A stretch of DNA of 64,000 bases from a bacterium (GTDB lineage: Bacteria > UBA10199 > 2-02-FULL-44-16 > JAAZCA01). This document shows, piece by piece, positions 12,901 through 38,346 of the stretch. A program made the translations under genes and the position numbers. The notes under the pieces are model-generated. The model was not told the origin of the DNA and searched no databases. It was given only the letters and a program-made list of their open reading frames with translations. Where the stretch lies: the NCBI GenBank assembly GCA_021810905.1, contig JAJZQH010000011.1, forward strand, positions 4,358-68,357, written 5' to 3'. The stretch's first letter is position 1; the number at the start of each line of letters is the position of its first letter.

Positions 12901-15900
12901 CCGCCGAGTCCGTTACCACGATTGTATAATGATACCGGCCGTCGAATGCCCTCGCGTCCGAGAGATTGGCGCCGTTCCATGCGAGCTGACGCTCGACCGG
13001 CGGAAGTGAGGCGACCTGCGATACGGAGGCTATGAGCGCCTGACCTGCAAACACGGAGAGCTGGGCCGCGACGTCCTGCATCGCGACGTTATCATCGACT
13101 CGATAACCGATCTTCGCCTCGCCGTTCTGTGCAAGCACCCCGGTCACGGCGACGGATGGCGCCGCGGTATCCACTATGACCATACCCTCAAACGGCGCGG
13201 CCGCTGCGCCACGCGCATCTGCGATCACGAGTCGCCATGCGTGTTCTCCATCGGTGACGAGCTGGCCGCCGGACTTGCCGTCCCACGAGATCGCCAACTC
13301 CCCCGCAGGCAATTCCTGCGATTGCACGAGCGCTCCATCGACGATGAGCTCCGCACGAACGCGCTCGCCGAAAGCTCCGCTGACCTTGACGCGCCATGCA
13401 GTCTCATCCTTGACGCCGTCGCCGTTCGGAGAGAACGAGGAAGGACTCGAGAGAAGCGCAACCGCGGGCGCTGCCGCGTCAAAGCGCAGATGCATATGCT
13501 GTGGCGATTCGGCGTTGCCGACCCTGTCGATCGCCCTAACCTCGAGTTCGGCGATTCCGGCGCCGGAATCATTCACCGCGAACGGACCGCCATAGGGCAT
13601 CCACGTACCGCCGTCCACGGAATATTCAATCCGGTCGAGCCCTGCGGGCATGAGGCCGCCGTCCTCAGCAGCGCAGCTGAACCGTGTATCTGCGGCGACA
13701 TATTCGTCGTCGCCCGATTTTTCATGGCTGCCGGAGATCGCGATGTTCGTCGTCGGAGGAGTTCGATCGAAGACCACGGGCTCGCTGTGCACGGATTCCG
13801 TGAGACCGTAATAATCGATGCCGAAGAATTCGATTTCGTAGACCCCTTCCTCAAAACCTTCGAGCGTAAACGGTGCGTTGAAGAGTTGATAATCCTTGTC
13901 GTTCACCCGATAGCGCATCTGGTAGACCGGCGCCGAGCCGTCGGCAGGCACGATGTTGAGAGGAGTTGCCGGGCCGATCCACTGCTGATGCCCGTCCGTA
14001 TAATGTGGATCGTCGATATCAAAGCGCGTGACGATTCCTGCGCCCTGGCCTGGCTGGTTCGGATCGATGATCGTAATAAACACCGTCTGCTCGGGCTCTT
14101 CATTGCCCTGGTCGTCCTTTGCAGAGCATGAGAAAGAATGTCGGCCTGGCGGCATCTGCGCGAGATCGATCAGCCCCTGGTATGGCTGATACTGTTCCTC
14201 ATCCCAGCGATAGCGGATCTCCGTGACGACGCTGCCGCGATCCGCCGCGTCTTCCGCTATGAGCATGATCTGGCTCGCGGGCGGAACGACCGCAAGCGAG
14301 CCGGGTTCCACGAGCTGCTCGTTCACCACGACTTGAGTCACGGGCGCCCGGCTGTCGACATAGACGCGCACAGACGCGCTCGCCTCTTTGCCGCTCTGCG
14401 TTCTGGCGTTCGCCTCGATCTGATACCAGCCTTGAGTTGCGCCTGGCGTCCACTCGACGTCGAACGGCGAGGTCGTTGATGACGATATCGCCTGCGCACT
14501 CCCGCCTTCTGGCGCCGCGGTGACGGAGAGGCTCTCGATCCCATCCGAAGGATCGACGCCGCCGAGCGAACCGGTGATATGCACGACGCCGCGCACCACG
14601 CTGTCCGCGGCCGGCGCGTCAATCGTCAGTCGCGGATAACCGTCATCTTCGCGCATGATCAGATAGCGCGAGAAGTGATTGAGCATGCCGGAGATACGGA
14701 AGATATCGTCCGACGATCCGGGCGTGCCGCGATCGTCCCACGTGTTGATCGTCGCAAGCTGCTCGAGCTCACCATCGTCTTTAAGATTGTAGATCGCCAT
14801 CACGGGAGGATCGTTCGCAGTGATGCCATAAACGCGATCCTTCACCTCCTGCGGATCATTTGCATAGAGCGCCTCTACTTCATCCCGCGTAAAATAGACT
14901 TCCAGCTGTGGCTGATACGTCGGATTCAACGCGATATCGTCCGGCTTGATCTCGACGATCGGCCCTATCGGATTGATGCCCGAAGGGAGATAGAGGCCCG
15001 GAGTGTCGGTCGGTATTGGAATCACGGTCACGAGTTCGTTGATGGAAGAATCGCATGGGAATGGACCGTTCGCTGGGCACAGGCTGTATTCGTCGAAATA
15101 GATTGAATAACGCCGCCAAGGTGAACTCACCACGGCAGGCGCATTGGCCTTAACGAGCGAACCGATGGAGACGTTCATCGTGTCCTCGCTCTTCAAAGCC
15201 CCGTTCGCGTCGGTCGCGCGCAGCATTACCGTATATTCGTGCCCGTTCAAGCGAGAGACGTCCCACCACGCGAGAGTATTGTTTTGCGCGCCCTGCCCTT
15301 CAGCTATCCTCTGCCAGGAATTCGTCTTCGGTTCAAAATAGCGAAGCTCCCACGCTTCGCCGCCCACCGCCCCCCTGATCTCGATGAAGCGCTTCGGAGC
15401 GGCATCCGGCTTGAGCTTCAATTTGAATGAGTCGTTCACGTTCTTATTGCTCTCGGAAACGCCGTCGCCGTCCACGTCGCTCGTTCCATTCGAATTGACG
15501 AGCATATCCGTGAGCATGAAGGAATCGTTCACGCTTCCATCGGGATAGCGAAGATCGATGGTCCACTCGTTCACGTGTGCAACGTCCGAGAACGTGTAGA
15601 GCGTGGGCGAATCTTTCACGGGTTGATTATACCTGGGATGCCCCGCATAGAGCGAAAATGGCCCGCTGATCGTCTTGAACGGCGCCTGAGTATCTTCCTC
15701 TATTCCCCGCGAGAGGCACCGCCGGGATTGATTGTCGACCGCGGTATTCAAACCTCCATTGATATACTTCGCTCCGTTGAAGATGCAGGCGGACGATGCC
15801 AGATATGGATCTGCATTCGTCGTAAAACCGTCGGGAATGAGATCAGCGTAGAGCTTCGGTGAAAGATATTGCCGCTCATCTATAGGACCATTCGCGTCGC

Positions 15901-18900
15901 CGAGCCAAGCGCGAACCGCGTTTCCCACGGCGATGGTTCCGTATGAAGCGGTTTGAGTCCAGGCGACACCGTTGATGCTCGGAGTGAACGTGAGACCGTA
16001 GGAAGAGACCACACTGGACACGATGTACGACTGGCCGCTCGACGTTGCGCCGTTGTATTCCGCCACCAGGACCGGATCTGTGACTGAATCGATAATCGAA
16101 TTGCCGCCGATGACATACGGTCCCCATGGCTGCGAAAGGAGCCTGCTAGCGTTCGCACGGATACGCACGCTGCCGCAGGTTACAGGTGCAACGACATTTC
16201 CATAGTTCCACTCGTACCACGAGCCGCAGATGGTGATCGGCCCGTTAGGGCAGAACGTGGGGAAGAGGGTGTTTTCAGGAGTGTGTTCATATCCGTACGA
16301 ATGACAGAGCGACAGATCCTGGCCGTGAGAACAATTGTTCACGAGAAAAGTCTGGTCAGCTGCCGAAATGCCGTTATGCCCGCTCGGCCTCCCCACCAGC
16401 CCTACGCCGATGCTCAAGCTGTCGGAGGCAGCGGCCGGCTGCTCGGCGATGTCGAAAGGGGCCGTCACTGACCTCTCACCCAGAGGCGTCCTCAAAAGCA
16501 TCGTGACATTGTCTGGGACATTGACGCTGGAAATCCTGTAAGAAGTCACCGTGTATCCGCTGTCGAAGAAGAGATTCGATACTGGGACGTAATCCGGCAT
16601 AAGACGGAAATCCTGCGTCCGGCACCCATATCCGTCGCCGAGATCTTCAATCGTATTGAGCGGTACATTCTCGGGCGTGACGACGGTTTCCAAAGGCATA
16701 TTCTGCTCGATCAATTCCGTGCCCCTGGCGCTGATTTCGTACGTGAAGGGAACGCGGATCGTTCCGCTTCCATACGCACGCCATTTGAAATCCGACGAAC
16801 CGTTGAGCGGAAAATCGTTCAGGGGATCGTCGTCGTCTCGAAGCGTTCCGGCGATTACATCAGGATCGGTGCTGCTCTCGTCGCCTTCGCCGACGAGCAT
16901 GGTGACGTCCGCATAGAGCCCGCCTCCCCCTATCGAGAGGGCGCGCACCGCAACGCTTTCGTTCTTTTCAACCACATCCGTGCATCCGGCATCTATGCAC
17001 TGGGCCTTGATCTTCACGGTATACGTCTTGCCGGACGGCACCACCACGCCCTGATCGCTGGCGCCGTTCCACGACACCGCGCCGATCTTGTCCACGTTCC
17101 CGTCGATCAGGGTGCGCACGAGCGCGCCGTCTTCGTCATAGACACCGACGTTCAATTTCGCGTAGCGGTTGAGGTTGTAGGACGCCGTGAGCGTTTCCGC
17201 CTGTACGTCATTTCCGTTGGCGTCGGTTATCATGTTGAACGGATCGAACACGTCCGACGAGAGCGCGAAACCCAGGATCGCAAGACCTGCGTTGTATTCG
17301 GTGGCGACGGTCATGTGAATGTCCGAGGTCGTCTTCGTGTCTCCGCCCGTCCCGTCCACCGCGGTGGCGGTCACGCGAGCGCGATAATCGCCCACGTCGA
17401 CGCGCTTGTTGACGTTGTCCTTGCCGTTCCACGCAAAGGAGTACGATCCCGGCGCGGTCGCTCCCATGGAGAACGACGCGGCCACGGGGCCTATCTGCCC
17501 GCCCGCCACCTTGTAAATCGTGACATTGACGTTCGAGGTCTCGTTGGCGAGTGCGTACGAAATGACCGACTCCGGAGACTGAGTAGAGATATTCGCCGGC
17601 GAGGCGTTCACGTTCGAGAGTTTCGGCCCGATGTTCTCCGGATCGTTCGGGTCCGTGGAAGGATCGTTCGGATCGTACGGCGTTCCCTGCGCCACGCTGC
17701 GCAGATCCACCACGAGCGAATCGAAATTCACGCGCCCCACGGCATTACCGTTTCCGTCGACGACCTTGAGCAGGATCGTATAGAGCCCGTTCGGGGTCCG
17801 CGCTGAATCGGTCGTATCCCATCGCGCGAGCAGACCGTGCTGCACCGGACGCACCGAGACGTTTGACGCGGGATAGACGGCGTCAGCCGGCTCGTTCGCG
17901 CTGTTGATGGGCGATTGATGCTGCAGCGGCACAGGTACGGTGAGCCACGGCGATCCTGCCTCGCCGGCGGCAAGCGCCGTTGCTTCATCCACCTTCCAGA
18001 TGCCGGGGCGATAGTAAACCTTGTACGCGAGGAAATCGAAGTTGTCGTTTCCCTCGCCGATATTCGGATCGGTTGCGATACCTTCGATCCCCGTCACTCC
18101 GTAGACGACGGGATAAGCGCCGTCGTCGCGATTCGGGTCGGTCGGGAGATCGATCTGGGCGCGCACGCCAAAGACGATGAGCGGCGTAGTCGCGCGGGAT
18201 GCCAGACCCAGGTCGTTCATCGCGGTGATGCGCAGGAAGTACAACCCCTTCGCCAGCGGCTCGTCGTCATTCCTCGTGACCGTGCCGTGGGTATTGACTC
18301 CATCAGCACGCACCGAATTTGCGCCAGCGGACTGATGCGCATTCTCGACAACGCGGAAGAGCTCGTTGCCCGCAGCGTCGAGAAGGTCCACCGTGACGAC
18401 GGCATCCGTGGAGAGGATATACGAGAGCATGGCATCATCATTATATCCGTCCGCGTTCGGGGTAATCACCTTCGGTTGGGCAACGACTTCGTCTATCTGC
18501 GTTATCGGCATCTCCATCTCTGCTAGGATGCGATCGTAGACGTGCACGTTCTCGCCGAGCGTGAGCTCTGCAAAGCGCTCGCGCGATGTCTTGTATACCG
18601 AAGACGAGTCCCAGCCGGAGATCGACGAAATCAAGCCTTCGTAGAGATCGAAGGCCACGACTCCCGCGTCGAGCGACGATTCGGCCTCATAGGGGAGATG
18701 CCAGTCCCAGCGCCGTACGGACGTTCCATCGCGATGCACCGAATATACAGTTCGATCCGCGAGCAACACGACGATCTCAGGTTCCATGTCCAGATCGATA
18801 TCAGCGATGAGCGGGCGCGCAGCCGGCACGGCGGGAAGCGGGAAACGCGCGACGACGTCGCCGTTGCGATCGAAGGCGAGGAGTTCGGGCGCTGACGTTC

Positions 18901-19627
18901 CGACCACGAGCTCGGGTTTCTCGTCGGCGTTCACGTCGATTGAGGCTGCACCGCCCTTGAAAGTCTGGGCGTTGAGAGATGCAAAGGCATGGTGCGATCC
19001 GTCCGCTTCCCACTCTACGATCTCGCCGCCGGCCTGATCCACGGCGTAGAGAGAGGACCTCCCGTCATTGTCCAGATCCGCCGCAGCGAGCCACGGCGCC
19101 GCGTTAAAATCCGCGTCATATGCGTCGAGCTTGGTGAATCCCGCGGCGTGACGAAAGACAAAGACCTTGCCGGACGTCGTTGTGAAGACCAGCTCAAGCC
19201 TGTTGTCTCCATTGATGTCGGAGATGATCGGCATAGCGGCGATGGAACCCACGCCCTGCGGGAATGCGAAACGCCACGTCGTGAGCTCCGTGCCGTCGCC
19301 GCGCAGCACGCGCATCTGTTCGGCGCCGCCCGCTGACGCGAGCACGAGGACGATCTCGAGCTTTGCGTCGCGATTCACGTCCACCAACCGCGTCATGGGC
19401 CGCGCCTTGAGGCCCTCATCAAGAAAATTTACGACCGGCCAGCCGGAGATGGCCTCGCCCTTTCGATCCCACGCATAGACCCGTCCGTCCCGCGAGACGC
19501 TAACGCGCTCGATGGCGTAAGAGTCATCGATATTGCCGGCGGAGATGCGGGCATGGGCATAGCCGGCGGCAGCGCACAGGGCCGCTATCAAAAAAGATAC
19601 GCCGGCGATTTTAGTTCTCACGTTCAT
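9947..19627 (-). CDS. giant secreted surface protein (about 3,226 aa): N-terminal FG-GAP beta-propeller repeats, many Ig/Fn3-like beta-sandwich repeats, C-terminal thrombospondin type-3 Ca-binding repeats
   Basis: The signal peptide is MNVRTKIAGVSFLIAALCAAAGYAHA, from the ATG at 19627. The ORF track starts at a GTG at 19642 that overlaps the upstream stop. FG-GAP-like units include DINGDNRLELVF, DLDNDGRSSLYAV, DVNADEKPELVV and DIDLDMEPEIVV. Several roughly 100-aa units share Y-x-x-DGG-x-W-x-Y...G-x-H-x-V-x-YRS-x-D-x-x-GN-E. The C-terminus DSDGDGLSDD...DSDDDGVIDG...DSDGDGFINALDPDSDNDGLNDG is TSP3-like. The protein ends GGGGGGGCTLIPEPMR. Confidence 0.8.
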   Translation of the reverse strand: MNVRTKIAGVSFLIAALCAAAGYAHARISAGNIDDSYAIERVSVSRDGRVYAWDRKGEAISGWPVVNFLDEGLKARPMTRLVDVNRDAKLEIVLVLASAGGAEQMRVLRGDGTELTTWRFAFPQGVGSIAAMPIISDINGDNRLELVFTTTSGKVFVFRHAAGFTKLDAYDADFNAAPWLAAADLDNDGRSSLYAVDQAGGEIVEWEADGSHHAFASLNAQTFKGGAASIDVNADEKPELVVGTSAPELLAFDRNGDVVARFPLPAVPAARPLIADIDLDMEPEIVVLLADRTVYSVHRDGTSVRRWDWHLPYEAESSLDAGVVAFDLYEGLISSISGWDSSSVYKTSRERFAELTLGENVHVYDRILAEMEMPITQIDEVVAQPKVITPNADGYNDDAMLSYILSTDAVVTVDLLDAAGNELFRVVENAHQSAGANSVRADGVNTHGTVTRNDDEPLAKGLYFLRITAMNDLGLASRATTPLIVFGVRAQIDLPTDPNRDDGAYPVVYGVTGIEGIATDPNIGEGNDNFDFLAYKVYYRPGIWKVDEATALAAGEAGSPWLTVPVPLQHQSPINSANEPADAVYPASNVSVRPVQHGLLARWDTTDSARTPNGLYTILLKVVDGNGNAVGRVNFDSLVVDLRSVAQGTPYDPNDPSTDPNDPENIGPKLSNVNASPANISTQSPESVISYALANETSNVNVTIYKVAGGQIGPVAASFSMGATAPGSYSFAWNGKDNVNKRVDVGDYRARVTATAVDGTGGDTKTTSDIHMTVATEYNAGLAILGFALSSDVFDPFNMITDANGNDVQAETLTASYNLNRYAKLNVGVYDEDGALVRTLIDGNVDKIGAVSWNGASDQGVVVPSGKTYTVKIKAQCIDAGCTDVVEKNESVAVRALSIGGGGLYADVTMLVGEGDESSTDPDVIAGTLRDDDDPLNDFPLNGSSDFKWRAYGSGTIRVPFTYEISARGTELIEQNMPLETVVTPENVPLNTIEDLGDGYGCRTQDFRLMPDYVPVSNLFFDSGYTVTSYRISSVNVPDNVTMLLRTPLGERSVTAPFDIAEQPAAASDSLSIGVGLVGRPSGHNGISAADQTFLVNNCSHGQDLSLCHSYGYEHTPENTLFPTFCPNGPITICGSWYEWNYGNVVAPVTCGSVRIRANASRLLSQPWGPYVIGGNSIIDSVTDPVLVAEYNGATSSGQSYIVSSVVSSYGLTFTPSINGVAWTQTASYGTIAVGNAVRAWLGDANGPIDERQYLSPKLYADLIPDGFTTNADPYLASSACIFNGAKYINGGLNTAVDNQSRRCLSRGIEEDTQAPFKTISGPFSLYAGHPRYNQPVKDSPTLYTFSDVAHVNEWTIDLRYPDGSVNDSFMLTDMLVNSNGTSDVDGDGVSESNKNVNDSFKLKLKPDAAPKRFIEIRGAVGGEAWELRYFEPKTNSWQRIAEGQGAQNNTLAWWDVSRLNGHEYTVMLRATDANGALKSEDTMNVSIGSLVKANAPAVVSSPWRRYSIYFDEYSLCPANGPFPCDSSINELVTVIPIPTDTPGLYLPSGINPIGPIVEIKPDDIALNPTYQPQLEVYFTRDEVEALYANDPQEVKDRVYGITANDPPVMAIYNLKDDGELEQLATINTWDDRGTPGSSDDIFRISGMLNHFSRYLIMREDDGYPRLTIDAPAADSVVRGVVHITGSLGGVDPSDGIESLSVTAAPEGGSAQAISSSTTSPFDVEWTPGATQGWYQIEANARTQSGKEASASVRVYVDSRAPVTQVVVNEQLVEPGSLAVVPPASQIMLIAEDAADRGSVVTEIRYRWDEEQYQPYQGLIDLAQMPPGRHSFSCSAKDDQGNEEPEQTVFITIIDPNQPGQGAGIVTRFDIDDPHYTDGHQQWIGPATPLNIVPADGSAPVYQMRYRVNDKDYQLFNAPFTLEGFEEGVYEIEFFGIDYYGLTESVHSEPVVFDRTPPTTNIAISGSHEKSGDDEYVAADTRFSCAAEDGGLMPAGLDRIEYSVDGGTWMPYGGPFAVNDSGAGIAELEVRAIDRVGNAESPQHMHLRFDAAAPAVALLSSPSSFSPNGDGVKDETAWRVKVSGAFGERVRAELIVDGALVQSQELPAGELAISWDGKSGGQLVTDGEHAWRLVIADARGAAAAPFEGMVIVDTAAPSVAVTGVLAQNGEAKIGYRVDDNVAMQDVAAQLSVFAGQALIASVSQVASLPPVERQLAWNGANLSDARAFDGRYHYTIVVTDSAGNSSAPQSGELILDRRPPASRLSFVGPSYDDAGGVSWISGVTKIALSASDMASDVDHIDYQLDGADWQRFAAPFGIAAAGAHSVSHRAVDSVGNTEDARQKAVSVDLDPPSSQLDIQGVQRTIDGKAHWSGSATFLKMTAADQGAGVADANFQVTSPSITYHALNSFSLGDIGDGEHTGRYWSVDRVANAEDKRDVNFVLHGSPPNVTLDVGLPQYRNAATLFVDHTTPIRIKATSGADDIVYLEYRLDSGAPVTATSGGTAELSLPQFNIDEEGNHLIRYFAVDDFENRRELAYPLTVDNSPPVTTIEKSQEVAGEEQLATPSTQIRLNAHDDIVGLKSTEYRIDAGAWQPYSIPFALRNLAAGEHSVFYRSTDLLGHPEPEHKQLLDLLVLDSSMTLSQAPRILMLALADASRPEIVPADLDDVRSIQSLCAERGWPFKVVADQQEFLNAMRSDAFNVFAFASAGSGYHFDGTEFVDGLMRELAARIYNGDSLMLLQSAVSVTGVAWDKLWSNLGGVNAVPQGGATRLVRAAGDASELPTLTLSPLFSFDGNVEPLFSADDSTVVAKKTFGKGSALLVGLPMNGWDSAYATAAAGSSEVKSWGETWDELFGRLLPAEETPSPGEVISFAVKVATRDRPANASASVAVPARAALVGTAGADLSQANASWSAELIRNEEEKFVYFLRLPLDDETIELPLTLTTSWLGGLTDTTTSSFKQEISSTWSDQWANCRALIDGLRTDAAASDGAKAMLQDILSGWDGAVSAGFDEKISKALDAFDKLVVLDAEKIAPVRAELSRLVEALELGAYEASSGGIPFSQSAMDSDGDGLSDDIEIEAGTDPYDVDSDDDGVIDGRETAALADSDGDGFINALDPDSDNDGLNDGLEVGVAAAADDPDGEGPIKSTDDAAGNLVFDSDPATVTNMTKADTDGGGLTDPQEDKNLNGRVDPGETDPNNPLDDTNPTGFDGGGGGGGCTLIPEPMR
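9950..10430 (-). other. thrombospondin type-3-like DxDxDG calcium-binding repeat region at the C-terminus of the giant protein
   Basis: Tandem D-x-D-x-D-G-x-x-D motifs are present. The antisense ORF 10122..10721 shows the mirrored SPS/LSL low complexity. Confidence 0.6.
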
Positions 19628-19638
19628 GAGTCGCTCGT

Positions 19639-22600
19639 TCACTGCGCTTCGAGATACGCGTTGATCAAACTCATATCGACCTGCCGGATCTTTTCGTTCC
19701 AGATAACCGTCAGATAGCGGTCGTCGCCGGAGATAATGACTGACGTCGGATCCTCCGATCCATTCTCATCATCATCATCTTTACAAGATGAATAGGGGAT
19801 CTCATCCTGTTGTTCCCCGCCAAAATACACACCTATATTGCAGTAATGCAGCACATAGTATCGCTCTGCACGTGAAGAAGGATAGGCTTGAAAATCCTTG
19901 AGCTGGCTGATATTCGACAGATCCAGGGCATAGACTCGATTCTCTACCCATATCTCATCACGCACAAGATGCGGCAAAATTGACCAATAACTGCTTACCC
20001 AATCTTCAGCCAATTTCGAAATCGAGCCGTTATCTTCAAACCGATAGACAGCAAGCTCGCCACCTTTTGCAGCTACAGCGATCCGTCGATCGGCACGGAA
20101 AGCCATGACCGGATGTCTTTCTGATGAGTAATAAAAATCCAATCCGCATGAACAATCGACGGACATATCCGAACGATCGAGAACGCAGACGTCGGACGAT
20201 TCCTTCCAAATCATAAGGACCTTCTGTCCTGGGCCGCTGGCGAGATCGGCCACCGTATCCACGTTCGGATGCGTGGTCTGACCCTGCAGCGTGCCATCTG
20301 GCGCCACCACTGTAATAACGTTGCCCTTTGCCGTGATAACAGTCCCATCCGGCGCGACGTCAAACGTGTCCGCTGCGGTTGGAAGCGGCTTCGGCGTAAT
20401 AAAATCCTTGCCGCTTATGGAATAGATCTGGAGCTCAATTCCCGGCTTGAAGAGCATGTAGACGTGATCCGTCACTGGATCATGAACCACCTTGAGCAGA
20501 TCGGCCTCTGAATAAGGAAGCGATGTGATCCATACATCCGGCATGTCGTCAAAAAGAAAAGTTGGGTTCCATCCCGACTGAAGCGAATAAATCCCCTCAA
20601 TCTCTATCGTGCTGTTCTTACAGTAAGCAGAAATCGTCACTTCAATTTCGTTTTCCGACTTAAATTCCACTGGAAGATTGTAACCATAGCACCCGGCAAA
20701 ATGTGCTTCCGTATCTTCAGTGAAGTTAAACCCTCTTATCCGAACTTTGGTTCCTATATTGCCGTTTAACGGATCTGCATTCGTAACGAGCGCATTATCA
20801 CCTCCGCCTTCCGCAACTTGTCCGATCAATGGCGTTGACAAGAGCGATGCGTCCCCCTCACGATTCAACATCAGGCTTGTCCTGTCCAAGGGTCTCATCT
20901 CGGCGTCTTCGATCCGAAGTTGCACCTTGCCGCTGTCAATGATCGACGATTCGTCAATCGTCACCTTCCCGTCAGTCGATAACCATGCACCTGATGCATT
21001 GGCTATCGCTTCATCGATCGGCATTTGATTGAATACGCTGATATCCTTGGCGGTCAGCATAAGGAGTGTCGCTCGATCAGCGTCGTACGTGTAAAAATTG
21101 TCCGCGCTCATCTGAATAGTTTCATTTCGGAAAAAATGCTTCAGAGGGATAACAAGCAGCATGCTGGTCGTGTTCTCTGCATTCCACATCGAGACATACG
21201 CGATCATACGCTGAGCATCGATTTTGATATAGCTATCCGACATAGAAACATTCTGATCGAAATTCGCTTCCGTGGGAGCCGCTGATGAACCGCCGCAGCC
21301 TGAAACAAGACACAATAATCCGACGACGGCCATGGGCGCACACGAACGCCTGGAAATACCACGCATTGCCGCCACGATCATGAGCACGATCACTCCGAAG
21401 GCGAACGACGCGCCGGCGCCGTATCCTGATCCTCCAACAAGTGCGCATCCGCCGCTGCCGGACGATGGCGGTTCATCTGCCAGCTGCGGCAATGCCTGCG
21501 GCGAGAACGGAGTTTCAGCGACATCTTCATCGCTCACCGGCAGGGGCGTCTGAAGATCGGTCGCATCGAAATTGCTGAATATTTTTGCGACGTCGATGAT
21601 TCCATATCCCCAGCGGTTGTCTGGGAAGACATCAACCACCCTTGAGTTGCGCGCAATGAGCGTCTCTATCTGCGATGTTGTGAGATCTGGCTTACGCTGG
21701 AGCATCAAGGCAATCGCTCCGGCAACGTGCGGCGATGCCATACTCGTGCCGGCCATCGCAACGAACCTCCGATCATTGTCAACGGCATAACCGGATCCGA
21801 CGAGCGAATTGATTGCATCGTAAGAAAGCGCGGAAATGATCATCTCGCCTGGAGCGGTGATTTCAGGCTTTTGCCCGGTGCGTGAGGAATCGCCAGATGG
21901 CCCTGGGCTGCTGAACGGCGAGAGAGAGTCTACGGGAGTAAAATCGCCTGAGATGCCGACGTCTCGCATGAGCGGCCATAAATCATCGCGTGTCGCAAAC
22001 GACGCCACGGAGATGACCTGCTGAGCTGTGGCGGGAATACCCACGGTGCGCCTGCTGTCGCCCGGACAATAACGATGACCTGACGACAGATAAACGCCGT
22101 CACGTTTAGTAAAATACGAGCCATATGCGGCCCACGCATCAAACGCGCCGCTTCCTGATGCGATCAGATCGAATGAATAATTATCGATGGATATATCGTT
22201 GCCTTCTGATGCTTCAATATAGAGGACTGTATGCTTTCTGCCGTTCTCGGGGTTCACGGTCTCCGTAGATTCAACCACGACATGGAGCCGTCCATCGTCC
22301 ATTTCGGAATCATAAATACTTCCTTCGGCTACGATACCGGTCTCTTCGTACGATCCATATTTATCCACGCCCAGACCAAACGTGAGCGCCGCGCCTTCAC
22401 GCTGCCATATATCGATCAACGCGTAGCTGCCGCCTGAGGACAAACCAAGGAACTCGAACCTGCATTCGTCCCCCTGCAGCTGCGTGGATGCGTGCACGCT
22501 CGCGATGACATCATCGCTATTACGGTTGTAGTTGCCGGCTGATGCGACTATGGCCCGGCCTGGAGCCTCGCTTATCTTCGCATCGAGCGCCTGCTCCAGC

Positions 22601-23487
22601 AACGACGTGCCGTCGTGCGCGCCATATTGCGTTCCGAGACTCATGTTGATCACGACCGGTTTGCCAGCCTGCGACGCCTTTCTCATTATATAATCGACGG
22701 CATCCACCAGGCTCGTAGAGAACGCACCCGACAATTCGCTCGCTATCTTGACAACAATCAGCTCGGCGCCTGGCGCCATGCCTTCGTATTGTTTGTCACG
22801 ACCGGCTGCGATCCCCGCCACATGAGTACCATGCCCGACTTCGTCCTTCGATGGACACGTCTTCTCCTCGATATCCTTGCGGAAACACTCGATGCCGTAG
22901 GTGCCCTCAATCTCCGAGGGTGCCGCGAATCCCTCTGCGGTCTCTATACCCTGATCCCATATTGAGATAATGCGTGAATTGCCGTCTGCGTCGTTGAACA
23001 CGGAATGGCGCCAGTCGATTCCCGTGTCGATGATCCCTATGATCACCCCCGTTCCATCATACGCAACTCCGTCGACCTGCCCGGCCTTCACCGCGGTCGC
23101 ACCTATAGCCGGGAGGCTCTTGTCGAGCATGGGCGCGAGCTGTTTGTCGGCCTCCGCGTATTCGATCTCACCGGATTTTGCCATCTGCTCCAGGAGCTCA
23201 ATAGATATCGTAACGGATGCGATCTCCTTGGCCACAACGCGAGCGTTGCCGCCGGAGGCATTGACGGCAGCGACTACGGCTTCAACATCACGAGCTTTCA
23301 CGAGGGCGCTGACGAAGCCATCGCGCGCGCCACTTGCCGCTTCTTTTCCGCTCCCCGCCAAATGCCGCTGCTGGCCAAGATACAAGACCGGGTCGATTGA
23401 GTTAGAGGCGCAGACCGAGAAAGATGCGGTCAACATCGCCACAGCGAGCACAATGCCGGATGTAAGCCTGTAGAGAGATGATTTCAT
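19639..23487 (-). CDS. S8 subtilisin-like peptidase (signal peptide, catalytic D/H/S). In the same frame it continues through an internal GC + TM + RRS sorting-signal-like segment and a second lipoprotein-like module with an IPT/TIG-like domain
   Basis: The catalytic triad motifs are IGIIDTGIDWRH (Asp), HGTHVAGIAAG (His) and GTSMASPHVAGAIALM (Ser). The signal peptide MKSSLYRLTSGIVLAVAMLTASFSVCASN starts at the ATG at 23487, whereas the ORF track starts at 23559. Residues 743-1306 begin with MAVVGLLCLVSGCGG (lipobox) and contain NGNIGTKVRIRGFNFTEDTEAHFAGCYGYNLPVEF (IPT/TIG-like). The stop overlaps the start of the giant protein gene. Confidence 0.8.
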   Translation of the reverse strand: MKSSLYRLTSGIVLAVAMLTASFSVCASNSIDPVLYLGQQRHLAGSGKEAASGARDGFVSALVKARDVEAVVAAVNASGGNARVVAKEIASVTISIELLEQMAKSGEIEYAEADKQLAPMLDKSLPAIGATAVKAGQVDGVAYDGTGVIIGIIDTGIDWRHSVFNDADGNSRIISIWDQGIETAEGFAAPSEIEGTYGIECFRKDIEEKTCPSKDEVGHGTHVAGIAAGRDKQYEGMAPGAELIVVKIASELSGAFSTSLVDAVDYIMRKASQAGKPVVINMSLGTQYGAHDGTSLLEQALDAKISEAPGRAIVASAGNYNRNSDDVIASVHASTQLQGDECRFEFLGLSSGGSYALIDIWQREGAALTFGLGVDKYGSYEETGIVAEGSIYDSEMDDGRLHVVVESTETVNPENGRKHTVLYIEASEGNDISIDNYSFDLIASGSGAFDAWAAYGSYFTKRDGVYLSSGHRYCPGDSRRTVGIPATAQQVISVASFATRDDLWPLMRDVGISGDFTPVDSLSPFSSPGPSGDSSRTGQKPEITAPGEMIISALSYDAINSLVGSGYAVDNDRRFVAMAGTSMASPHVAGAIALMLQRKPDLTTSQIETLIARNSRVVDVFPDNRWGYGIIDVAKIFSNFDATDLQTPLPVSDEDVAETPFSPQALPQLADEPPSSGSGGCALVGGSGYGAGASFAFGVIVLMIVAAMRGISRRSCAPMAVVGLLCLVSGCGGSSAAPTEANFDQNVSMSDSYIKIDAQRMIAYVSMWNAENTTSMLLVIPLKHFFRNETIQMSADNFYTYDADRATLLMLTAKDISVFNQMPIDEAIANASGAWLSTDGKVTIDESSIIDSGKVQLRIEDAEMRPLDRTSLMLNREGDASLLSTPLIGQVAEGGGDNALVTNADPLNGNIGTKVRIRGFNFTEDTEAHFAGCYGYNLPVEFKSENEIEVTISAYCKNSTIEIEGIYSLQSGWNPTFLFDDMPDVWITSLPYSEADLLKVVHDPVTDHVYMLFKPGIELQIYSISGKDFITPKPLPTAADTFDVAPDGTVITAKGNVITVVAPDGTLQGQTTHPNVDTVADLASGPGQKVLMIWKESSDVCVLDRSDMSVDCSCGLDFYYSSERHPVMAFRADRRIAVAAKGGELAVYRFEDNGSISKLAEDWVSSYWSILPHLVRDEIWVENRVYALDLSNISQLKDFQAYPSSRAERYYVLHYCNIGVYFGGEQQDEIPYSSCKDDDDENGSEDPTSVIISGDDRYLTVIWNEKIRQVDMSLINAYLEAQ
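21340..21459 (-). other. internal tripartite sorting-signal-like segment (Gly-rich GC motif, hydrophobic helix, RRS), followed at 21333 by an in-frame ATG and lipoprotein signal
   Basis: SGSGGCALVGGSGYGAGASFAFGVIVLMIVAAMRGISRRS resembles PEP-CTERM, MYXO-CTERM or GlyGly-CTERM C-terminal anchors, which are common on S8 peptidases. I hand-verified the codons ggt att tcc agg cgt tcg tgt gcg ccc ATG gcc gtc gtc gga tta ttg. Confidence 0.5.
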
Positions 23488-23542
23488 ATATCGTCCGTTC
23501 CGGGCATATATCATGAACCGCCCACATGGTATCCGTTCACAG

Positions 23543-24601
23543 CTATTTTTTGTTCTCACTCCCCTTCGGCTTCCACGTCGCCGCTGCCTTGTCGCCCAAT
23601 GTGGTCACGTAACTGAAGAACGGCTCCTTGAGTTCACCCTCCCCATAGAGACCTGCGTCCGGCATTTTGCAGTCCTTCATATTGTCCGCGATCGACTTCA
23701 TCCGATCGTCTATCCGCCGCGATCCTGACGAACGAATGATTTCAAATGAGACCTGCTCTCCTCGCTTGTTGTAATCGATTTTGGCCGTGACGTATTTTCC
23801 ACGGCTGTTGAGTTTTTTATTTTCCTGCTTTCCGAAACTGGCAGCCTCGCATTCTTCGAGAACGTTCATCGCCTCATAGAGTTTACTTGCCGAGGGTTTC
23901 TCTTCCTGCTTTCCGACATAAAAGTCATAGGTCTTTGCCTCAGGGTCGTCTTTCGACCTGTCATGCCCCTTGAGGGTCTCTGCGAATCCGACCTGACCAT
24001 CAAGAAGCAGGTGTGCCAACGCTCCCGCCGCGAGGTTTTTCTTTATGATCTTTACGCCCAGATCGACGCCGTCGAGATCCTTGATACGAATCTTTCGAAG
24101 TTTTTTGTCCCTGAGATCGAGATATACGATACCATAATAATCGGTGGCAGGTTCAAGTTGGCGAACATAGAATATCTCGTTCGTTCTTATCGGCCTGTGC
24201 AAAACCTGCCTGCCGTATTTAGCATCAAGTGCAGCGCTCATCCTGAGCCCGTCATTCTCGACGGTCTTGCCCGCGACAGAACCTGCAACGCGTTGTACGT
24301 GCGGATATACATGCACGGCATGCAGATTCCTGTCTCCATCAGATACGATGTCAACATGCTCCACTGAAACCGCATCGCTCCCTACGTTCCGAACCATCAC
24401 CCCAACCGGCAGAAAATGACGCCATTCTCGATACAGCTGAAATTTTTTGCGTTCCTCTTTGGCTGAATACGGATGAACGGAAACGATGGCGCCGACTTCC
24501 GGTAGTTCGACAACCGATTTCATGAAATCATCGGCAAACGATTGTTTTGTCATTGCAAACGCCACCATCATTCCGATCAACAACATGCTCAAGCGTTTCA
24601 T
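23543..24601 (-). CDS. secreted hypothetical protein with a C-terminal TonB-C-like domain
   Basis: The signal peptide is MKRLSMLLIGMMVAFAMTKQSFA. The C-terminus KYVTAKIDYNKRGEQVSFEIIRSSGSRRIDDRMKSIADNMKDCKMPDAG follows the TonB_C pattern (G.V.v.f.v...SSG...lD.aA...v). Confidence 0.4.
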   Translation of the reverse strand: MKRLSMLLIGMMVAFAMTKQSFADDFMKSVVELPEVGAIVSVHPYSAKEERKKFQLYREWRHFLPVGVMVRNVGSDAVSVEHVDIVSDGDRNLHAVHVYPHVQRVAGSVAGKTVENDGLRMSAALDAKYGRQVLHRPIRTNEIFYVRQLEPATDYYGIVYLDLRDKKLRKIRIKDLDGVDLGVKIIKKNLAAGALAHLLLDGQVGFAETLKGHDRSKDDPEAKTYDFYVGKQEEKPSASKLYEAMNVLEECEAASFGKQENKKLNSRGKYVTAKIDYNKRGEQVSFEIIRSSGSRRIDDRMKSIADNMKDCKMPDAGLYGEGELKEPFFSYVTTLGDKAAATWKPKGSENKK

Positions 24602-24707
24602 TTAGACCTCCATTAATTACGTTTTCAATCCTGAATTGCCACTCCGGCGATGAATATTGGTGATTACTCATGTCAATCACATATCGCTTGATTCAATGTC
24701 TCCATTA

Positions 24708-24944
24708 TCAACTATTCTTCAAGCAGGTTATAATGATTAATATTCCGACGCTTAGAAGAAATATTCCGCCCACTAAGGCGACATTAATAAATACTCTCTC
24801 GGATATCTTGATTCCCCAGAGCATATAATTTGATTTTACTGTCCAACGAGCCAATCTCATGCGCATTATTATGACTGATACGCCAAACATCATAAAAAAT
24901 AGTGCGATCAATAGCCTTTGCATATCTATGCCTCCAAGTACCAT
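24708..24944 (-). CDS. small integral membrane protein (2-3 TM); putative immunity protein for the orphan rhs-CT toxin immediately upstream
   Basis: The hydrophobic segments are LLIALFFMMFGVSVIIM and INVALVGGIFLLSVGILIIITCL. It is AT-rich and sits directly 3' of the toxin module, the usual immunity position. Confidence 0.45.
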   Translation of the reverse strand: MVLGGIDMQRLLIALFFMMFGVSVIIMRMRLARWTVKSNYMLWGIKISERVFINVALVGGIFLLSVGILIIITCLKNS

Positions 24945-24956
24945 TTAAAACATCAT

Positions 24957-25283
24957 TCAAAATTCCCAGATTTCAACTACATCAAATACGGTTATGGTAA
25001 CTCCGGGTGTCACGAATCCACCTTCAACATAATCTCCATCGGTCGATTCAAGTCCAAAACCAACGGAACCTCCCCCCCAGAATCCGGCCTGAAATTCAAC
25101 ATTCCATCCCTCTGAAACTGAATCAGGAGAACCTGTGATGGAGACATTTATTGATGGAGGCATGACCCCTCCACCGATATATCCATAGATCTTGCTACCG
25201 TCGAATAACAAACCTCCAGTAAGACCAAGGCCATATCCCGCTGAAACATTAATATTAACGTATCCATTTGATATTTTATTGGT
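24957..25283 (-). other. variable toxin domain of orphan rhs-CT 1 (Gly-rich, GxxxG-type)
   Basis: The domain sequence after DPFG is NKISNGYVNINVSAGYGLGLTGGLLFDGSKIYGYIGGGVMPP...GFWGGGSVGFGLES... It is AT-rich compared with the conserved core. Confidence 0.5.
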
Positions 25284-26027
25284 TCCAAATGGATCAAATG
25301 AGTTCAGTGAATTGTTCATGACATATGCATACACATTCATCCCATCCACGTACCACTCCGGATCCCTCTGCAGGAATCTTCCCAGCTCCGGCGCATACAT
25401 GCGGTTGCGGTAGTAATACAGCCCAGTCGCCTCGTCGTATCTACGCGATGCGAAGCGGTACGCGTTGCCGATCGTGCTCTCTGTTATCACTTGACCGAGC
25501 TCATCCGTGATCGTTGCTGCTCCGTACGGATCATACGAGTAGCGCTCCACGAGGGCGCCATTCTCGTCCGTGATCGCTGCTATGTTGTTGCGCATGTCTG
25601 CGTGATAGTAATACGCGTGATTGTTTGAGATCATCGCTATCGGGCGGTCGATGCCATCATCATAGATAAAACTCGCCGTGAGCGTGCCGTCCGTGACTTC
25701 CTCTATCTCTTGCCAGCCATCGTAGATGAATTGAGTCACCGTGCCATCCGAGCGCAGCTCCGAGATGCGGCGCTTGAGGGCGTCGTATGCGTAGGACGCT
25801 ACGAAGGTATCGTTCAGGGAATCCCGCACCTCGGTCACGAGATTGCGGTCGTCGTATTCATAGCGATACTTTCCATCGTCGATGAGGTTTCCTGCCTCGT
25901 CGTAGATACATCTGTCGCTCAGAATTCTCATGGCAGTCCAACAGCCCTTAGCAAGCAGCTTGGTTGGACCATATTTTGAATCGCTAAGATCCATAATTAC
26001 CGTCTCTATTTCTCGCTCAACGTCCAA
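24957..26027 (-). CDS. orphan RHS C-terminal cassette (RHS repeat-associated core, DPxG, then a Gly-rich variable toxin domain)
   Basis: The stretch AGNLIDDGKYRYEYDDRNLVTEVRDSLNDTFVASYAYDALKRRISELRSDGTVTQF...YYYHADMRNNIAAITDENGALVERYSYDPYG...GLYYYRNRMYAPELGRFLQRDP is near-identical to the C-terminal core of the main RHS protein ending at 27915. It has DPFG and then a divergent, Gly-rich C-terminus. Confidence 0.8.
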   Translation of the reverse strand: MDVEREIETVIMDLSDSKYGPTKLLAKGCWTAMRILSDRCIYDEAGNLIDDGKYRYEYDDRNLVTEVRDSLNDTFVASYAYDALKRRISELRSDGTVTQFIYDGWQEIEEVTDGTLTASFIYDDGIDRPIAMISNNHAYYYHADMRNNIAAITDENGALVERYSYDPYGAATITDELGQVITESTIGNAYRFASRRYDEATGLYYYRNRMYAPELGRFLQRDPEWYVDGMNVYAYVMNNSLNSFDPFGTNKISNGYVNINVSAGYGLGLTGGLLFDGSKIYGYIGGGVMPPSINVSITGSPDSVSEGWNVEFQAGFWGGGSVGFGLESTDGDYVEGGFVTPGVTITVFDVVEIWEF

Positions 26028-26073
26028 ACCTGACTCGTTATGTTAAGGCAATTTTTTATTAAGAAATTGGCAA

Positions 26074-26445
26074 CTACTGCTTGTAGAAAAGTCTCTTAGA
26101 TATTTTCAGGGTTTTTGCATTGATCCAATACTGCACTTCCATCCCGATTATAGCCCTATGTTGTTTTGACATTTCTTTCTTCGAAAGCAGATACGGGTGA
26201 AAGAAAACGATGATATCGTCTCCCTCTTTATAGAGCTCGATATTGTATTTTTTTAACTCTTTTTCAGCTTTGCTCATTTCCGACGTCGTCATAAAATCAG
26301 AATACGCGACAGACCACGCATCGAGGTAAACACCGGGAAATCCATACTTAGTATTAATTTCATGCAATGACACAGTTGAACATCCCAAACAACATAACGA
26401 CACTAAGGTCGCCGCACTTATCAAGCACCTATTAATAATATTCAC
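26074..26445 (-). CDS. small lipoprotein; putative immunity protein for orphan rhs-CT 2
   Basis: The signal and lipobox are MNIINRCLISAATLVSLCCLGCS. It is AT-rich and lies directly 3' of the toxin cassette 26479..27579. Confidence 0.5.
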   Translation of the reverse strand: MNIINRCLISAATLVSLCCLGCSTVSLHEINTKYGFPGVYLDAWSVAYSDFMTTSEMSKAEKELKKYNIELYKEGDDIIVFFHPYLLSKKEMSKQHRAIIGMEVQYWINAKTLKISKRLFYKQ

Positions 26446-26478
26446 ATACCCTCCTTTGATGTAATTTGGCGAAATTCA

Positions 26479-26889
26479 TCACGGTTTTTTTGGACTCCTT
26501 GAAACCGATCCCACTTTTGTTATCTCACTTGATGAAACGTCAAAACGATACACATTCCCTTTGGGGGTTCCCAGATAGGCATCGTCATTATAATATTTTG
26601 CCAAATCTTTATCGCGAGGCGAAAAATGTTCGTTATCGTACGCCGGATTATTATCACCATGTGTATGATAGTAGGCAGTTGTTCCTGTTCCGGCCGGGGA
26701 CTTTGCGTCATACGGCTGGACTTGTTTTACGTCTCCTGCAATTGGTTCCGTATATGAATAATAATCTGCTCGTGAATGATAGATTAATCCGCCATACTCC
26801 CTACCCTCTGCAATTGACCTCAGATTAATATCTGTAACTGCTGCCGCCGCAGCATCATCTTGCGTTGGATAGTGGTCACCAGGTAGTTC
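26479..26889 (-). other. variable toxin domain of orphan rhs-CT 2 (possible JAB/MPN-like H-x-H-x11-S-x-x-D motif)
   Basis: The motif H-T-H-G-D-N-N-P-A-Y-D-N-E-H-F-S-P-R-D has the spacing of JAB metalloprotease signatures, with an upstream Glu-rich segment. Confidence 0.3.
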
Positions 26890-27579
26890 GCCAAATGGAT
26901 CAGTCCATTTTATGGGATTATTCCTTACGTATTTATACACATTCATCCCATCCGCATACCCCACAGGATCCCGCTGCAGGAATCTGCCCAGCTCTGGCGT
27001 ATACATTCGGTGACGGTAGTAATACAGCCCTGTCGCCGCGTCGTATCTACGCGATGAGAAGCGGTACGAGTTGCCGATTGTGCTCTCTGTTATCACCTGA
27101 CCAAGCTCATCTGTGATCGTCGCTGCTCCGTACGGATCGTAGCTGTATCGCTCGATGAGAGCGCCGTTCTCATCCGTGATCGCGGCGATGTTGTTTCTTG
27201 TATCCGCGTGATAGTAATACGCGTGATTGTTTGAGATCATCGCTATCGGGTGATCTATTCCGTCGTCGTAGATGTAACTCGCCGTGATGGTGTTGTTCGT
27301 GATTTCCTCTATCTCTTGCCAGCCATCATAGATGAATTGAGTCACCGTGCCATCAGAGCGTAGCTCTGATATTCGACGTTTCATCGCGTAGGATGCGGAT
27401 TCGTGAGCAACGATCCACTCGCTATCTGGATGCAAATTTATAACGCTATATGTCTTATCGCTGCGGTGCATGTTTAAGCTCTCACCTTTTGTCCAATGTC
27501 CAGACTTGACCCGTTTTCGTTTCTCTACAAAACAATATTCAACCCTTGCCGATAACGAGTCGCGACATTTTGAAGCCAC
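26479..27579 (-). CDS. orphan RHS C-terminal cassette 2 (core and DPxG, with a distinct toxin domain carrying an HxH...SxxD metal-binding-like signature)
   Basis: From aa 64 onward (YAMKRRISELRSDGTVTQFIYDGWQEIEE...YYYHADTRNNIAAITDENGALIERYSYDPYG...GLYYYRHRMYTPELGRFLQRDP...NNPIKWTDPFGE) it is homologous to the main RHS core. The first 63 aa are unrelated. The toxin part includes EGREYGGLIYHSRADYYSYTEP...AYYHTHGDNNPAYDNEHFSPRD. Confidence 0.75.
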   Translation of the reverse strand: MASKCRDSLSARVEYCFVEKRKRVKSGHWTKGESLNMHRSDKTYSVINLHPDSEWIVAHESASYAMKRRISELRSDGTVTQFIYDGWQEIEEITNNTITASYIYDDGIDHPIAMISNNHAYYYHADTRNNIAAITDENGALIERYSYDPYGAATITDELGQVITESTIGNSYRFSSRRYDAATGLYYYRHRMYTPELGRFLQRDPVGYADGMNVYKYVRNNPIKWTDPFGELPGDHYPTQDDAAAAAVTDINLRSIAEGREYGGLIYHSRADYYSYTEPIAGDVKQVQPYDAKSPAGTGTTAYYHTHGDNNPAYDNEHFSPRDKDLAKYYNDDAYLGTPKGNVYRFDVSSSEITKVGSVSRSPKKP

Positions 27580-27598
27580 TTTCTAACTAGACAGCCAT

Positions 27599-27889
27599 TC
27601 ACAGCCCCATAAGCATACGGAAATGTCTGAATATTCCGAGAAATGATGCTGCAATAAATGCACATCCAATTAAATACATGACAATTCGAGCTTCGATGTA
27701 TCGACACTTACTAATCTCTGAAAGCTTCCTTCTCGTTTTGACGATCTTGGTTTCAAACATTCCTGCGTTACAGAGCAAATTCACAGTTACCACATGGTTC
27801 TTTAGGATCAGGAACACACCAAACCCCAAAAGTGCAATCGCCGCAGCCAGCCCCATAACTGCCTTTACGATATCCATATGTCTCCTCAT
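27599..27889 (-). CDS. small membrane protein (2-3 TM); putative immunity protein for the main RHS C-terminal toxin
   Basis: Hydrophobic helices are AVMGLAAAIALLGFGVFLIL and IVMYLIGCAFIAASFLGIF. It is AT-rich and starts 26 nt after the RHS stop. Confidence 0.45.
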   Translation of the reverse strand: MRRHMDIVKAVMGLAAAIALLGFGVFLILKNHVVTVNLLCNAGMFETKIVKTRRKLSEISKCRYIEARIVMYLIGCAFIAASFLGIFRHFRMLMGL

Positions 27890-27914
27890 GATTTAATGAT
27901 AATCAATTAATTAG

Positions 27915-38036: not shown

Positions 38037-38346
38037 TCAAGTCCCCTGACTGACTCTCATGCGATGTATCCGGACGTATCGGCCAAAACTATCAAAAGTT
38101 GCGCGATAAATGTCCAGAGGCGAACATATATAATGATAGGGCACATGAACATTAAGCAATTGGCATGCCATTGGCCGCCCGCGCTGCCCGATTCCTAACA
38201 TAGCGATTATTAACGGTTTTTATTTCGAGATCAAAGGATGACCCGTAAGATCACTGTTCGGCTATTCGAAAAAGTGAACAGGCTGTTCAAAATACTGAAC
38301 CAGAAGGGCAATCCGTACCGAGCAAGGGTTTTGAAATGAGTTCCCG

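Follow-up and report, generated by a model that had tools for sequence, protein, structure and literature searches.

A probable orphan rhs-CT/immunity array downstream of a Sec-signal, two-shell Rhs gene in a bacterium of the UBA10199 lineage

A stretch of 64,000 nucleotides (nt) of bacterial DNA (the window; NCBI GenBank assembly GCA_021810905.1, contig JAJZQH010000011.1, positions 4,358 to 68,357; GTDB lineage UBA10199, 2-02-FULL-44-16, JAAZCA01) encodes a long Rhs protein, referred to here as the main RHS, whose gene is followed by two truncated open reading frames (ORFs) and three small genes. The truncated ORFs, orphan 1 and orphan 2, repeat the last part of the Rhs core of the main gene and then continue into C-terminal toxin (CT) domains, or tips, of other types. 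The genes succeed the main RHS in the order imm1, orphan 1, imm2, orphan 2 and imm3, followed by the genes of a secreted protein of 352 amino acids (aa) and of an S8 peptidase. All the genes of the array are on the minus strand and the coordinates given are positions in the window; the ORF coordinates proposed in an initial annotation of this region have all been confirmed. At the level of sequence the locus shows all the hallmarks of such an array, namely a full-length main gene, 5'-truncated fragments homologous to its core, a switch of tip at a DPxG motif and a small gene after each tip, and it is very probably a genuine orphan rhs-CT/immunity array. The features of the array are the following.

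27915-38036, minus strand: main RHS, 3373 aa, with a signal peptide, two shells and two Rhs_assc_core regions
28681-28804, minus strand: 124-nt tract of the main core, identical to orphan 1
28404-29027, minus strand: segment of the main core repeated in the orphans (YDEAGN...DPYGL, aa 3004-3211)
27915-28403, minus strand: C-terminal toxin tip of the main RHS, family A (unnamed, glycine-rich)
27599-27889, minus strand: small ORF containing imm1
27599-27877, minus strand: imm1, 92 aa, two transmembrane spans (2-TM), candidate immunity gene for the main tip
27400-27598, minus strand: junction sequence between imm1 and the orphan-1 core fragment, without homology to the main gene
26479-27579, minus strand: orphan-1 ORF, 366 aa
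27164-27287, minus strand: matching 124-nt identical tract in orphan 1
26890-27399, minus strand: orphan-1 fragment of the core, 510 nt and about 170 aa, with DPFG at its end
26479-26889, minus strand: orphan-1 tip, Tox-JAB-2/DUF4329 (PF14220), with residues E...HTH...SxxD
26074-26445, minus strand: imm2, 123 aa, candidate immunity gene for orphan 1, carrying an N-terminal export signal and a lipobox-like LGC
24957-26027, minus strand: orphan-2 ORF, 356 aa
25284-25904, minus strand: orphan-2 fragment of the core, 621 nt and 207 aa, with DPFG at its end
24957-25283, minus strand: orphan-2 tip, family B (unnamed, glycine-rich)
24708-24944, minus strand: imm3, 71-78 aa, 2-TM, candidate immunity gene for orphan 2

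The repeated core segment is present in exactly three copies across the window, as seen when the region was compared with the whole window using BLASTN. Orphan 2 (25321-25905) matches the main gene (28444-29028) with an identity of 84.5% over 588 nt (reported E-value 0.0), orphan 1 (26891-27400) matches it (28408-28917) with 81.9% over 513 nt (E-value 1e-143), and the two orphans share 83.8% over 507 nt. The same three copies, with spacings of 1606 and 1517 nt, have been identified by a repeat finder. The protein alignment of the main RHS and the orphans runs without gaps up to DP[YF]G and is unalignable beyond it, and the TIGR03696 profile (Rhs_assc_core) matches both the orphans (E-values 1e-20 and 1e-25). 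The nucleotide homology and the divergence after DPxG into different toxin domains put forward in the initial annotation are thus both present. Its further suggestion that the last 200 or so residues of the core are reproduced almost exactly holds for the retention of the core and not for its exactness, as the copies are identical at 82-85% of amino acids and 80-84% of nucleotides and differ at 16-20% of sites; the length is right for orphan 2 (207 aa) and too great for orphan 1 (only about 170 aa).

The orphans, of 356 and 366 codons, are far shorter than the main gene of 3373. Their homology to it begins at codon 42 in orphan 2 and at about codon 61 in orphan 1, and the 120-200 nt that precede the homologous part in each of them are unrelated to the main gene and encode no signal peptide. 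No Rfam families and no inverted repeats of the insertion-sequence type were found in 23500-29200. The pairs of core fragments have a ratio of nonsynonymous to synonymous divergence (dN/dS) of 0.15-0.17 at a dS of 0.64-0.75, which indicates that they diverged under purifying selection and are pieces of once-functional Rhs genes with separate histories, and not products of local decay or duplication. The core fragments have a GC content of 50-54% and a GC content at third codon positions (GC3) of 0.59-0.68. The tips are at 43-44% GC in the orphans and 52% in the main gene, with a GC3 of 0.31-0.38 in all three, and the small genes at 37-42%, which bears out the earlier description of the core as GC-rich and of the toxin and immunity parts as AT-rich.

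The relationship of the three cores changes along their length. In the first 94 nt of the shared core the main gene is nearest to orphan 2 (89%), and in the last 274 nt the orphans are nearest to each other (84% versus 76%). Between main positions 28681-28804 and orphan-1 positions 27164-27287 the two sequences are identical over 124 nt, a tract in which orphan 2 has 19 differences. The proportion of differing third positions is 43% outside the tract, and the finding of zero differences in the 41 third positions within it has a probability of about 1e-10; a run of this length was reached in 0 of 100,000 permutations. Perfect identity over 124 nt against a dS of about 0.7 indicates a past gene conversion between the main gene and orphan 1. 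The main gene and orphan 2 share a perfect tract of 45 nt. An in-silico crossover in the 124-nt tract removes 1517 nt and gives an in-frame RHS::Tox-JAB-2 fusion of 3346 aa, and one in the 45-nt tract removes 3123 nt and gives an in-frame fusion of 3318 aa, neither of them with internal stops.

Related loci were obtained from a metagenome scan with the core alignment and from a look-up of the matches to family A; 88 other loci were fetched. The related loci belong to distinct taxa, with 52-78% amino acid identity in the RHS and about 50% in the S8 peptidase; a scan of a genome collection with the core alignment gave relatives at just 27-29% identity (a metagenome-assembled genome of Myxococcota, Albitalea and Variovorax). 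In the relatives homology to the main gene always stops at DPxG (aa 3210-3216), and the higher AT content of CT and immunity parts relative to the core recurs in every related locus.

A syntenic locus without orphans, L019, encodes a two-shell RHS of 3384 aa that ends in a family-B tip, and the tip type of orphan 2 is thus found on a full-length Rhs elsewhere. This RHS is followed by a 77-aa, 2-TM gene that resembles imm3 (Smith-Waterman score of 61 against 28.7 ± 5.7 for shuffled sequences, z = 5.6), a homologue of the 352-aa protein and an S8 peptidase. In L019 a cassette of the orphan-2 type thus terminates the full-length RHS and has the same downstream neighbours as in the window, which marks orphan 2 as the oldest, displaced tip.

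In L012 the same two-shell RHS carries another main tip. Downstream of it are an Imm-NTF2-2 gene that stands alone, one orphan whose tip is of a third type, a family-A orphan followed by an 86-aa homologue of imm1 (z = 8), and decayed remnants of core and tip. These remnants comprise a 53-aa core fragment (11651-11812) and a fragment of the main-type tip of the locus itself (12176-12358), followed by a helix-turn-helix fragment of a transposase, and loci of this type therefore also accumulate dead cassettes. The tip type of the first orphan of L012 ends the RHS gene of L017, where the S8 peptidase comes directly next. In L018 the main position is taken by a fifth tip, and the locus also contains the beginning of a long orphan. 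Family-A tips directly followed by homologues of imm1 have been identified in L013/L014 and L016 (z = 13.5 and 19.7), and the z scores of 8-20 of the imm1 homologues compare with values of at most 1.7 for unrelated small transmembrane proteins used as control. Taken over the related loci, the sequences indicate that a tip and its partner gene travel together and occupy either the main or the orphan position. The exact tip of orphan 1 was not found on a full-length Rhs in the 88 other loci; DUF4329 domains on full-length Rhs proteins have been documented elsewhere (PMC10469887).

Each of the three tips is followed by a small gene that has the position and the Shine-Dalgarno (SD) site of a candidate immunity gene. 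These SD sites are strong in all three cases and are the best translation signals of the region, and with such ribosome-binding sites the small genes are probably expressed. imm1 has GAGGAG 4 nt 5' of an ATG at 27877, which gives a product of 92 and not 96 aa; the gene proposed at 27599-27889 therefore stands, and its start at 27889, which has no SD site, does not. imm2 has AAGGAGGG 3 nt 5' of a GTG start at 26445. imm3 has GGAGG 7 nt 5' of an ATG at 24923, and its product is probably of 71 aa. The earlier description of a small membrane protein or lipoprotein gene after each tip agrees with the products: imm1 and imm3 have two hydrophobic spans each, and imm2, as read from its sequence, has an N-terminal hydrophobic signal followed by a lipobox-like LGC that fails the strict lipobox pattern. 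imm1 and imm3 were considered as homologues of each other and found to be unrelated. None of the three has a match in Pfam or NCBIfam.

Tip and partner co-occur for imm1 in four loci (three independent contexts), for imm3 in one locus and for imm2 in none. No homologue of imm2 has been found, as a protein search returned imm2 alone and none is present among the fetched loci, and it is an ORFan. It was also considered as a divergent Imm-NTF2-2 protein, and this was rejected, as it does not match PF15631 even at E <= 10 and its Smith-Waterman comparison with the Imm-NTF2-2 of L012 gives z = -1.3. We infer that the three small genes are immunity genes, with comparative support for imm1 and imm3 and none for imm2.

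The tip of orphan 1 is a member of the Tox-JAB-2 family. The PF14220 profile aligns with it over positions 1-114 of 116 and scores 75.9 bits (E-value 3e-21), well above the cut-off of 28.6. The signature of this family, comprising the E, H[ST]H, S and D residues of the JAB metal site, was defined by Zhang et al. 2012 (PMC3482391), and the corresponding residues can be read in the sequence as ...AEGREYGG..., ...YYHTHGD... and ...FSPRD.... The tip has in addition a weak match to Prok-JAB (E-value 0.19). No sequence relative was found for it in PDB, and its single-sequence AlphaFold 2 (AF2) model, with a predicted local distance difference test score (pLDDT) of 33, is too poor for assignment of a fold.

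The other two tips are glycine-rich and acidic (17-23% glycine in families A and B). The main tip has 17% glycine and three GxxxGxxxG motifs, and the orphan-2 tip has 21% glycine and two such motifs; neither of them has a match in Pfam or NCBIfam or a significant one in PDB. Family A comprises the main tip and four genuine relatives (E-values 3e-16 to 2e-5) obtained when 1.8 billion representatives were searched exhaustively with HMMER; all four relatives consist of an RHS core, DPxG and a glycine-rich tip. Family B has one relative among the fetched loci, the tip of L019 (47.6% identity over 105 aa, E-value 2e-15). A homology of the two families could not be demonstrated (BLASTP E-value 0.014 over 33 aa, hhalign probability 14-15%) and they have been kept separate. 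An AF2 model of family A from 5 sequences (pLDDT 46) has two helices and eight beta-strands; in Foldseek no PDB structure matched it at E <= 0.001 (best E-value 0.027, TM-score 0.37), and the top matches of this low-confidence model are transmembrane beta-barrels, which serve as a lead only. Profile searches of PDB gave marginal and unconvincing matches to 8w2s (E-value 0.002, with no passing stretch) and 8oks (E-value 0.02).

The 2-TM partners of tips A and B suggest, by analogy with the ionophores of contact-dependent inhibition (CDI), EsxX and Tse5, that both may act at the inner membrane. For the Tox-JAB-2 tip the export signal of imm2, its candidate partner, would point to an action outside the cytoplasm. 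The published guesses on Tox-JAB-2 function are nuclease or RNase, which imply a cytoplasmic target and are at odds with an exported immunity candidate. The stand-alone Imm-NTF2-2 gene of L012 (8127-8453; PF15631, E-value 5e-17), in a locus that has no Tox-JAB-2, is an orphan immunity gene with a clear signal peptide. As with imm2, this is a hint at a site of action of Tox-JAB-2 beyond the cytoplasm in the present lineage. It is a tentative extension of these observations that tips A and B, with their predicted beta-strands, are undescribed membrane-inserting folds delivered by a Sec-type Rhs, and that the partners of Tox-JAB-2 in this lineage are exported, which would make the toxin an extracytoplasmic enzyme such as a periplasmic peptidase instead of the nuclease or RNase assumed so far; we regard it as doubtful.

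The main RHS has an N-terminus that resembles a Sec signal peptide, as read from the sequence, and matches RHS_repeat (E-value 4e-105), YD_repeat_2x (E-value 1e-70) and TIGR03696 (E-value 4e-44). TIGR03696 matches it in two stretches. The first ends at its core motif, ...YFGGRYYDPLVGRFISPDP...NPFGSRDIFGW (aa 1449-1491), and the core motif of the second lies at aa 3166-3211. The first core is followed by a linker of roughly 220 aa rich in G, D and S, a DUF6531 domain (aa 1713-1771) and the second shell. Identity between the shells is as low as 23-24%, and their GC contents are 47% and 60%. The two-shell architecture is conserved in L012, L018 and L019, and the only precedent found for it is WapA-CT1 of Streptococcus suis (PMC12704120). 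No LysM, DNRLRE or cell-wall-anchor domain was detected in the main RHS with Pfam, and no PAAR, VgrG or type VI secretion system (T6SS) domains in it or in the scanned neighbouring genes of the window; a T6SS-delivered Rhs effector has been rejected for the lack of these among the scanned genes. One of the proteins encoded in the window belongs to the OmpA family and has an outer-membrane barrel domain, which suggests that the host is probably diderm.

A second RHS gene lies directly upstream (38347-44817, minus strand). Its product of 2156 aa has a signal peptide, a DUF6531 domain, RHS repeats and a C-terminus similar to YkuD (L,D-transpeptidase fold), and its core has no nucleotide homology to the orphan array. 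The gap of 310 nt between it and the main RHS (38037-38346) has no plausible immunity ORF. On the other side of the array, the secreted 352-aa protein (23543-24601, minus strand) has no family match; it has a homologue in L019 (27% identity, E-value 1e-32), where it directly follows the imm3-like gene, and is absent in L017. It marks the ancestral boundary of the RHS locus on the downstream side. Beyond it are a 1306-aa S8 subtilase (19639-23559, minus strand), which is syntenic with the RHS in L017 and L019, and a 3231-aa protein (9947-19642, minus strand) with FlgD_ig, Big_13 and TSP3 repeats and a weak internal match to CHU_C, a type IX secretion system (T9SS) signal. No tRNA genes were found among the scanned genes of the window.

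The sequences show the architecture, the homology, the linkage of the cassettes, their mobility between positions and a past exchange. These are best accounted for by a Sec-signal, two-shell Rhs polymorphic-toxin gene that has an orphan rhs-CT/immunity array at its 3' end, an explanation that we hold with considerable confidence. For expression, toxicity, specificity of immunity, compartment of action, present-day switching and the non-export of the orphans, we infer by comparison with Salmonella LT2 (PMC3967940) and S. suis WapA (PMC12704120). Only the main gene, with its signal peptide, shells and self-cleaving core, would make an exportable toxin. The orphans, in which the last 170-207 codons of the core are in frame with alternative tips, would be silent spare warheads, since they are without any export signal. 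The small genes would keep the cell immune to all the three types of toxin; imm1 and imm3 are predicted to neutralise glycine-zipper, membrane-acting tips within the inner membrane, and the exported imm2 to neutralise a Tox-JAB-2 metallohydrolase outside the cytoplasm. New tips would come as core-CT-immunity cassettes that recombine into the core and displace the previous tip downstream, and homologous exchange between the core repeats could later fuse an orphan tip to the full-length gene again. Such re-arming recombination would probably take place after duplication, so that the immunity to the main toxin is not lost.

An arrangement of this kind could also be an artefact of assembly, or a tandem duplication in situ of the 3' end that has since diverged, as the contig comes from a metagenome assembly and repeats are the classic sites of mis-assembly. 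A collapsed or chimeric assembly is unlikely, since the copies differ at 16-20% of sites and their longest shared run of 124 nt is below the k-mer of 141 implied by the k141_ name of the contig. The window matches a 143.5-kb metagenome contig of ERZ27237050, and in a second assembly (Logan, SRR13189623), from a run that may or may not be an independent sample, three contigs cover the same junctions at 100% identity and in the same order from the main tip to imm3 and the downstream genes; these contigs end exactly within the perfectly repeated tracts, as expected of an assembler with a short k. Divergence from one duplicated tip is excluded by tips that have no demonstrable homology and a composition unlike that of the core, and a dS of about 0.7 with a dN/dS of 0.16 argues for separate functional histories. 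On these grounds, the divergent copies, the second assembly and the unrelated tips, both the artefact and the duplication have been rejected as extremely improbable. A further suggestion is that the orphans are expressed from internal starts and function independently as proteins of roughly 330-345 aa made up of a core remnant and a toxin. Gene callers predict products of 330 and 345 aa, an ATG at 27471, within the junction sequence at the start of orphan 1, is preceded by AAGGTGAG, a weak to moderate SD site, and an ATG at 25994 has a weak GAGACGG. Such products would have no signal peptide, shell or secretion-adaptor domain and would not be exportable, the orphan product studied in Salmonella is undetectable without fusion (PMC3967940), and the truncated WapA-CT2 of S. 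suis is non-functional in competition (PMC12704120), all of which make an independent function improbable.

The array could instead be mainly an immunity island, in which selection keeps the three small genes against the toxins of neighbours and the orphan CTs are relics that are not reused. It is the small genes that have the best translation signals of the region, the stand-alone Imm-NTF2-2 without a toxin and the decayed core and CT remnants of L012 show that immunity genes outlive toxins at the locus, and an identity of 80-84% disfavours recombination. Both orphan frames, however, stay open through 330-345 codons of AT-rich DNA, the catalytic JAB residues are preserved, the 124-nt identical tract is evidence of exchange between the main gene and orphan 1, and cassettes are found in both positions in related loci. 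We consider it possible, although not the likelier course, that this role is the principal one; it is compatible with the orphan rhs-CT/immunity array and does not exclude it.

Several observations weigh against the explanation preferred here. Its description in the initial annotation as a classical, recombination-ready array is right as to the arrangement, while the readiness has to be qualified, as the repeats are homeologous (80-84% identical), perfect identity is confined to short tracts of 124 and 45 nt, and homeologous recombination is inefficient. No junction of the main gene with an orphan has been observed in the population, the array being read from assemblies and not from reads. Both orphans have possible internal ATG starts, one of them with a moderate SD site, and some independent translation is possible. 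The view of tips A and B as membrane toxins is drawn solely from their composition and the type of immunity protein, with a pLDDT of 46 and no significant structural matches for the model. The Tox-JAB-2 tip and imm2 are both without a counterpart in any fetched locus, and imm2 is unrelated to Imm-NTF2-2, the known partner of Tox-JAB-2. Promoter-like sites are not enriched (7 against 9.3 expected from shuffles), and expression of the small genes is therefore assumed to come from read-through transcription.

The closest parallel is the rhs-main/rhs-CT-orphan pair of Salmonella Typhimurium LT2, for which the mechanism has been shown experimentally (Koskiniemi et al. 2014, PMC3967940). As in LT2, the switch to a different toxin comes at DPxGL, the fragment has its own immunity gene (a candidate here), and orphan tips occur fused to full-length Rhs in other strains. 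The present locus differs from it in having two orphans in series and other types of toxin, in a main protein with a Sec signal peptide and two shells, in the absence of PAAR, VgrG and T6SS genes within 64 kb, and in that the array is known from sequence alone. The repeats of LT2 are 95% identical over 522 bp (PMC3967940), whereas the core here is 82-85% identical with a perfect tract of 124 nt. An identity of 80-84% over the shared core compared with 95% suggests that switching is rarer here than in LT2, and the role of immunity reservoir may dominate over it.

The system of WapA-CT1/WapA-CT2 in S. suis (PMC12704120) also has a Sec-dependent Rhs protein of more than 3000 aa. As in the main RHS, there are a signal peptide, a DUF6531 domain and a conserved cleavage motif in each of two Rhs domains, and a truncated orphan Rhs-CT lies downstream. 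The main RHS differs in that it has no LysM, DNRLRE or cell-wall anchor and has DUF6531 between the shells, in its likely diderm host and in its unrelated tips. The tip of orphan 1 resembles the Tox-JAB-2/DUF4329 toxins of Rhs proteins (PMC3482391), including the PAAR-RhsA-DUF4329 of Salmonella pathogenicity island 6 (SPI-6; PMC10469887), in its PF14220 domain, signature residues and attachment to RHS. Unlike in those systems its candidate partner is not Imm-NTF2-2 and belongs to no immunity family of Pfam or NCBIfam, being an ORFan with an export signal. The glycine-rich tips with GxxxGxxxG motifs, a very small membrane partner and a polymorphic-toxin scaffold are reminiscent of the CDI ionophores (PMC11630599) and EsxX of Staphylococcus aureus (PMC12744356), and the same glycine-zipper and small-partner traits are found in the Rhs pore-former Tse5, as far as it is described where it is cited within PMC11630599. 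No resemblance of tips A and B to these toxins was found in sequence, nor a significant one in structure, and family A is predicted, with low confidence, to have two helices and eight beta-strands and not a helical bundle.

The arrangement is textbook polymorphic-toxin biology, which brings no new principle and would be unsurprising to specialists. Its value is that of a clean natural series outside the enterobacteria and T6SS, unusually well backed by natural variants. In five related uncultivated loci one chromosomal Rhs gene is found with different tips, and identical types of cassette are seen in both active and orphan positions. Two unnamed families of glycine-rich Rhs toxins have been defined, together with conserved 2-TM partner families, and an exported candidate partner for Tox-JAB-2, imm2, has been flagged. 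An apparent gene-conversion tract ties the main gene to one of its orphans.

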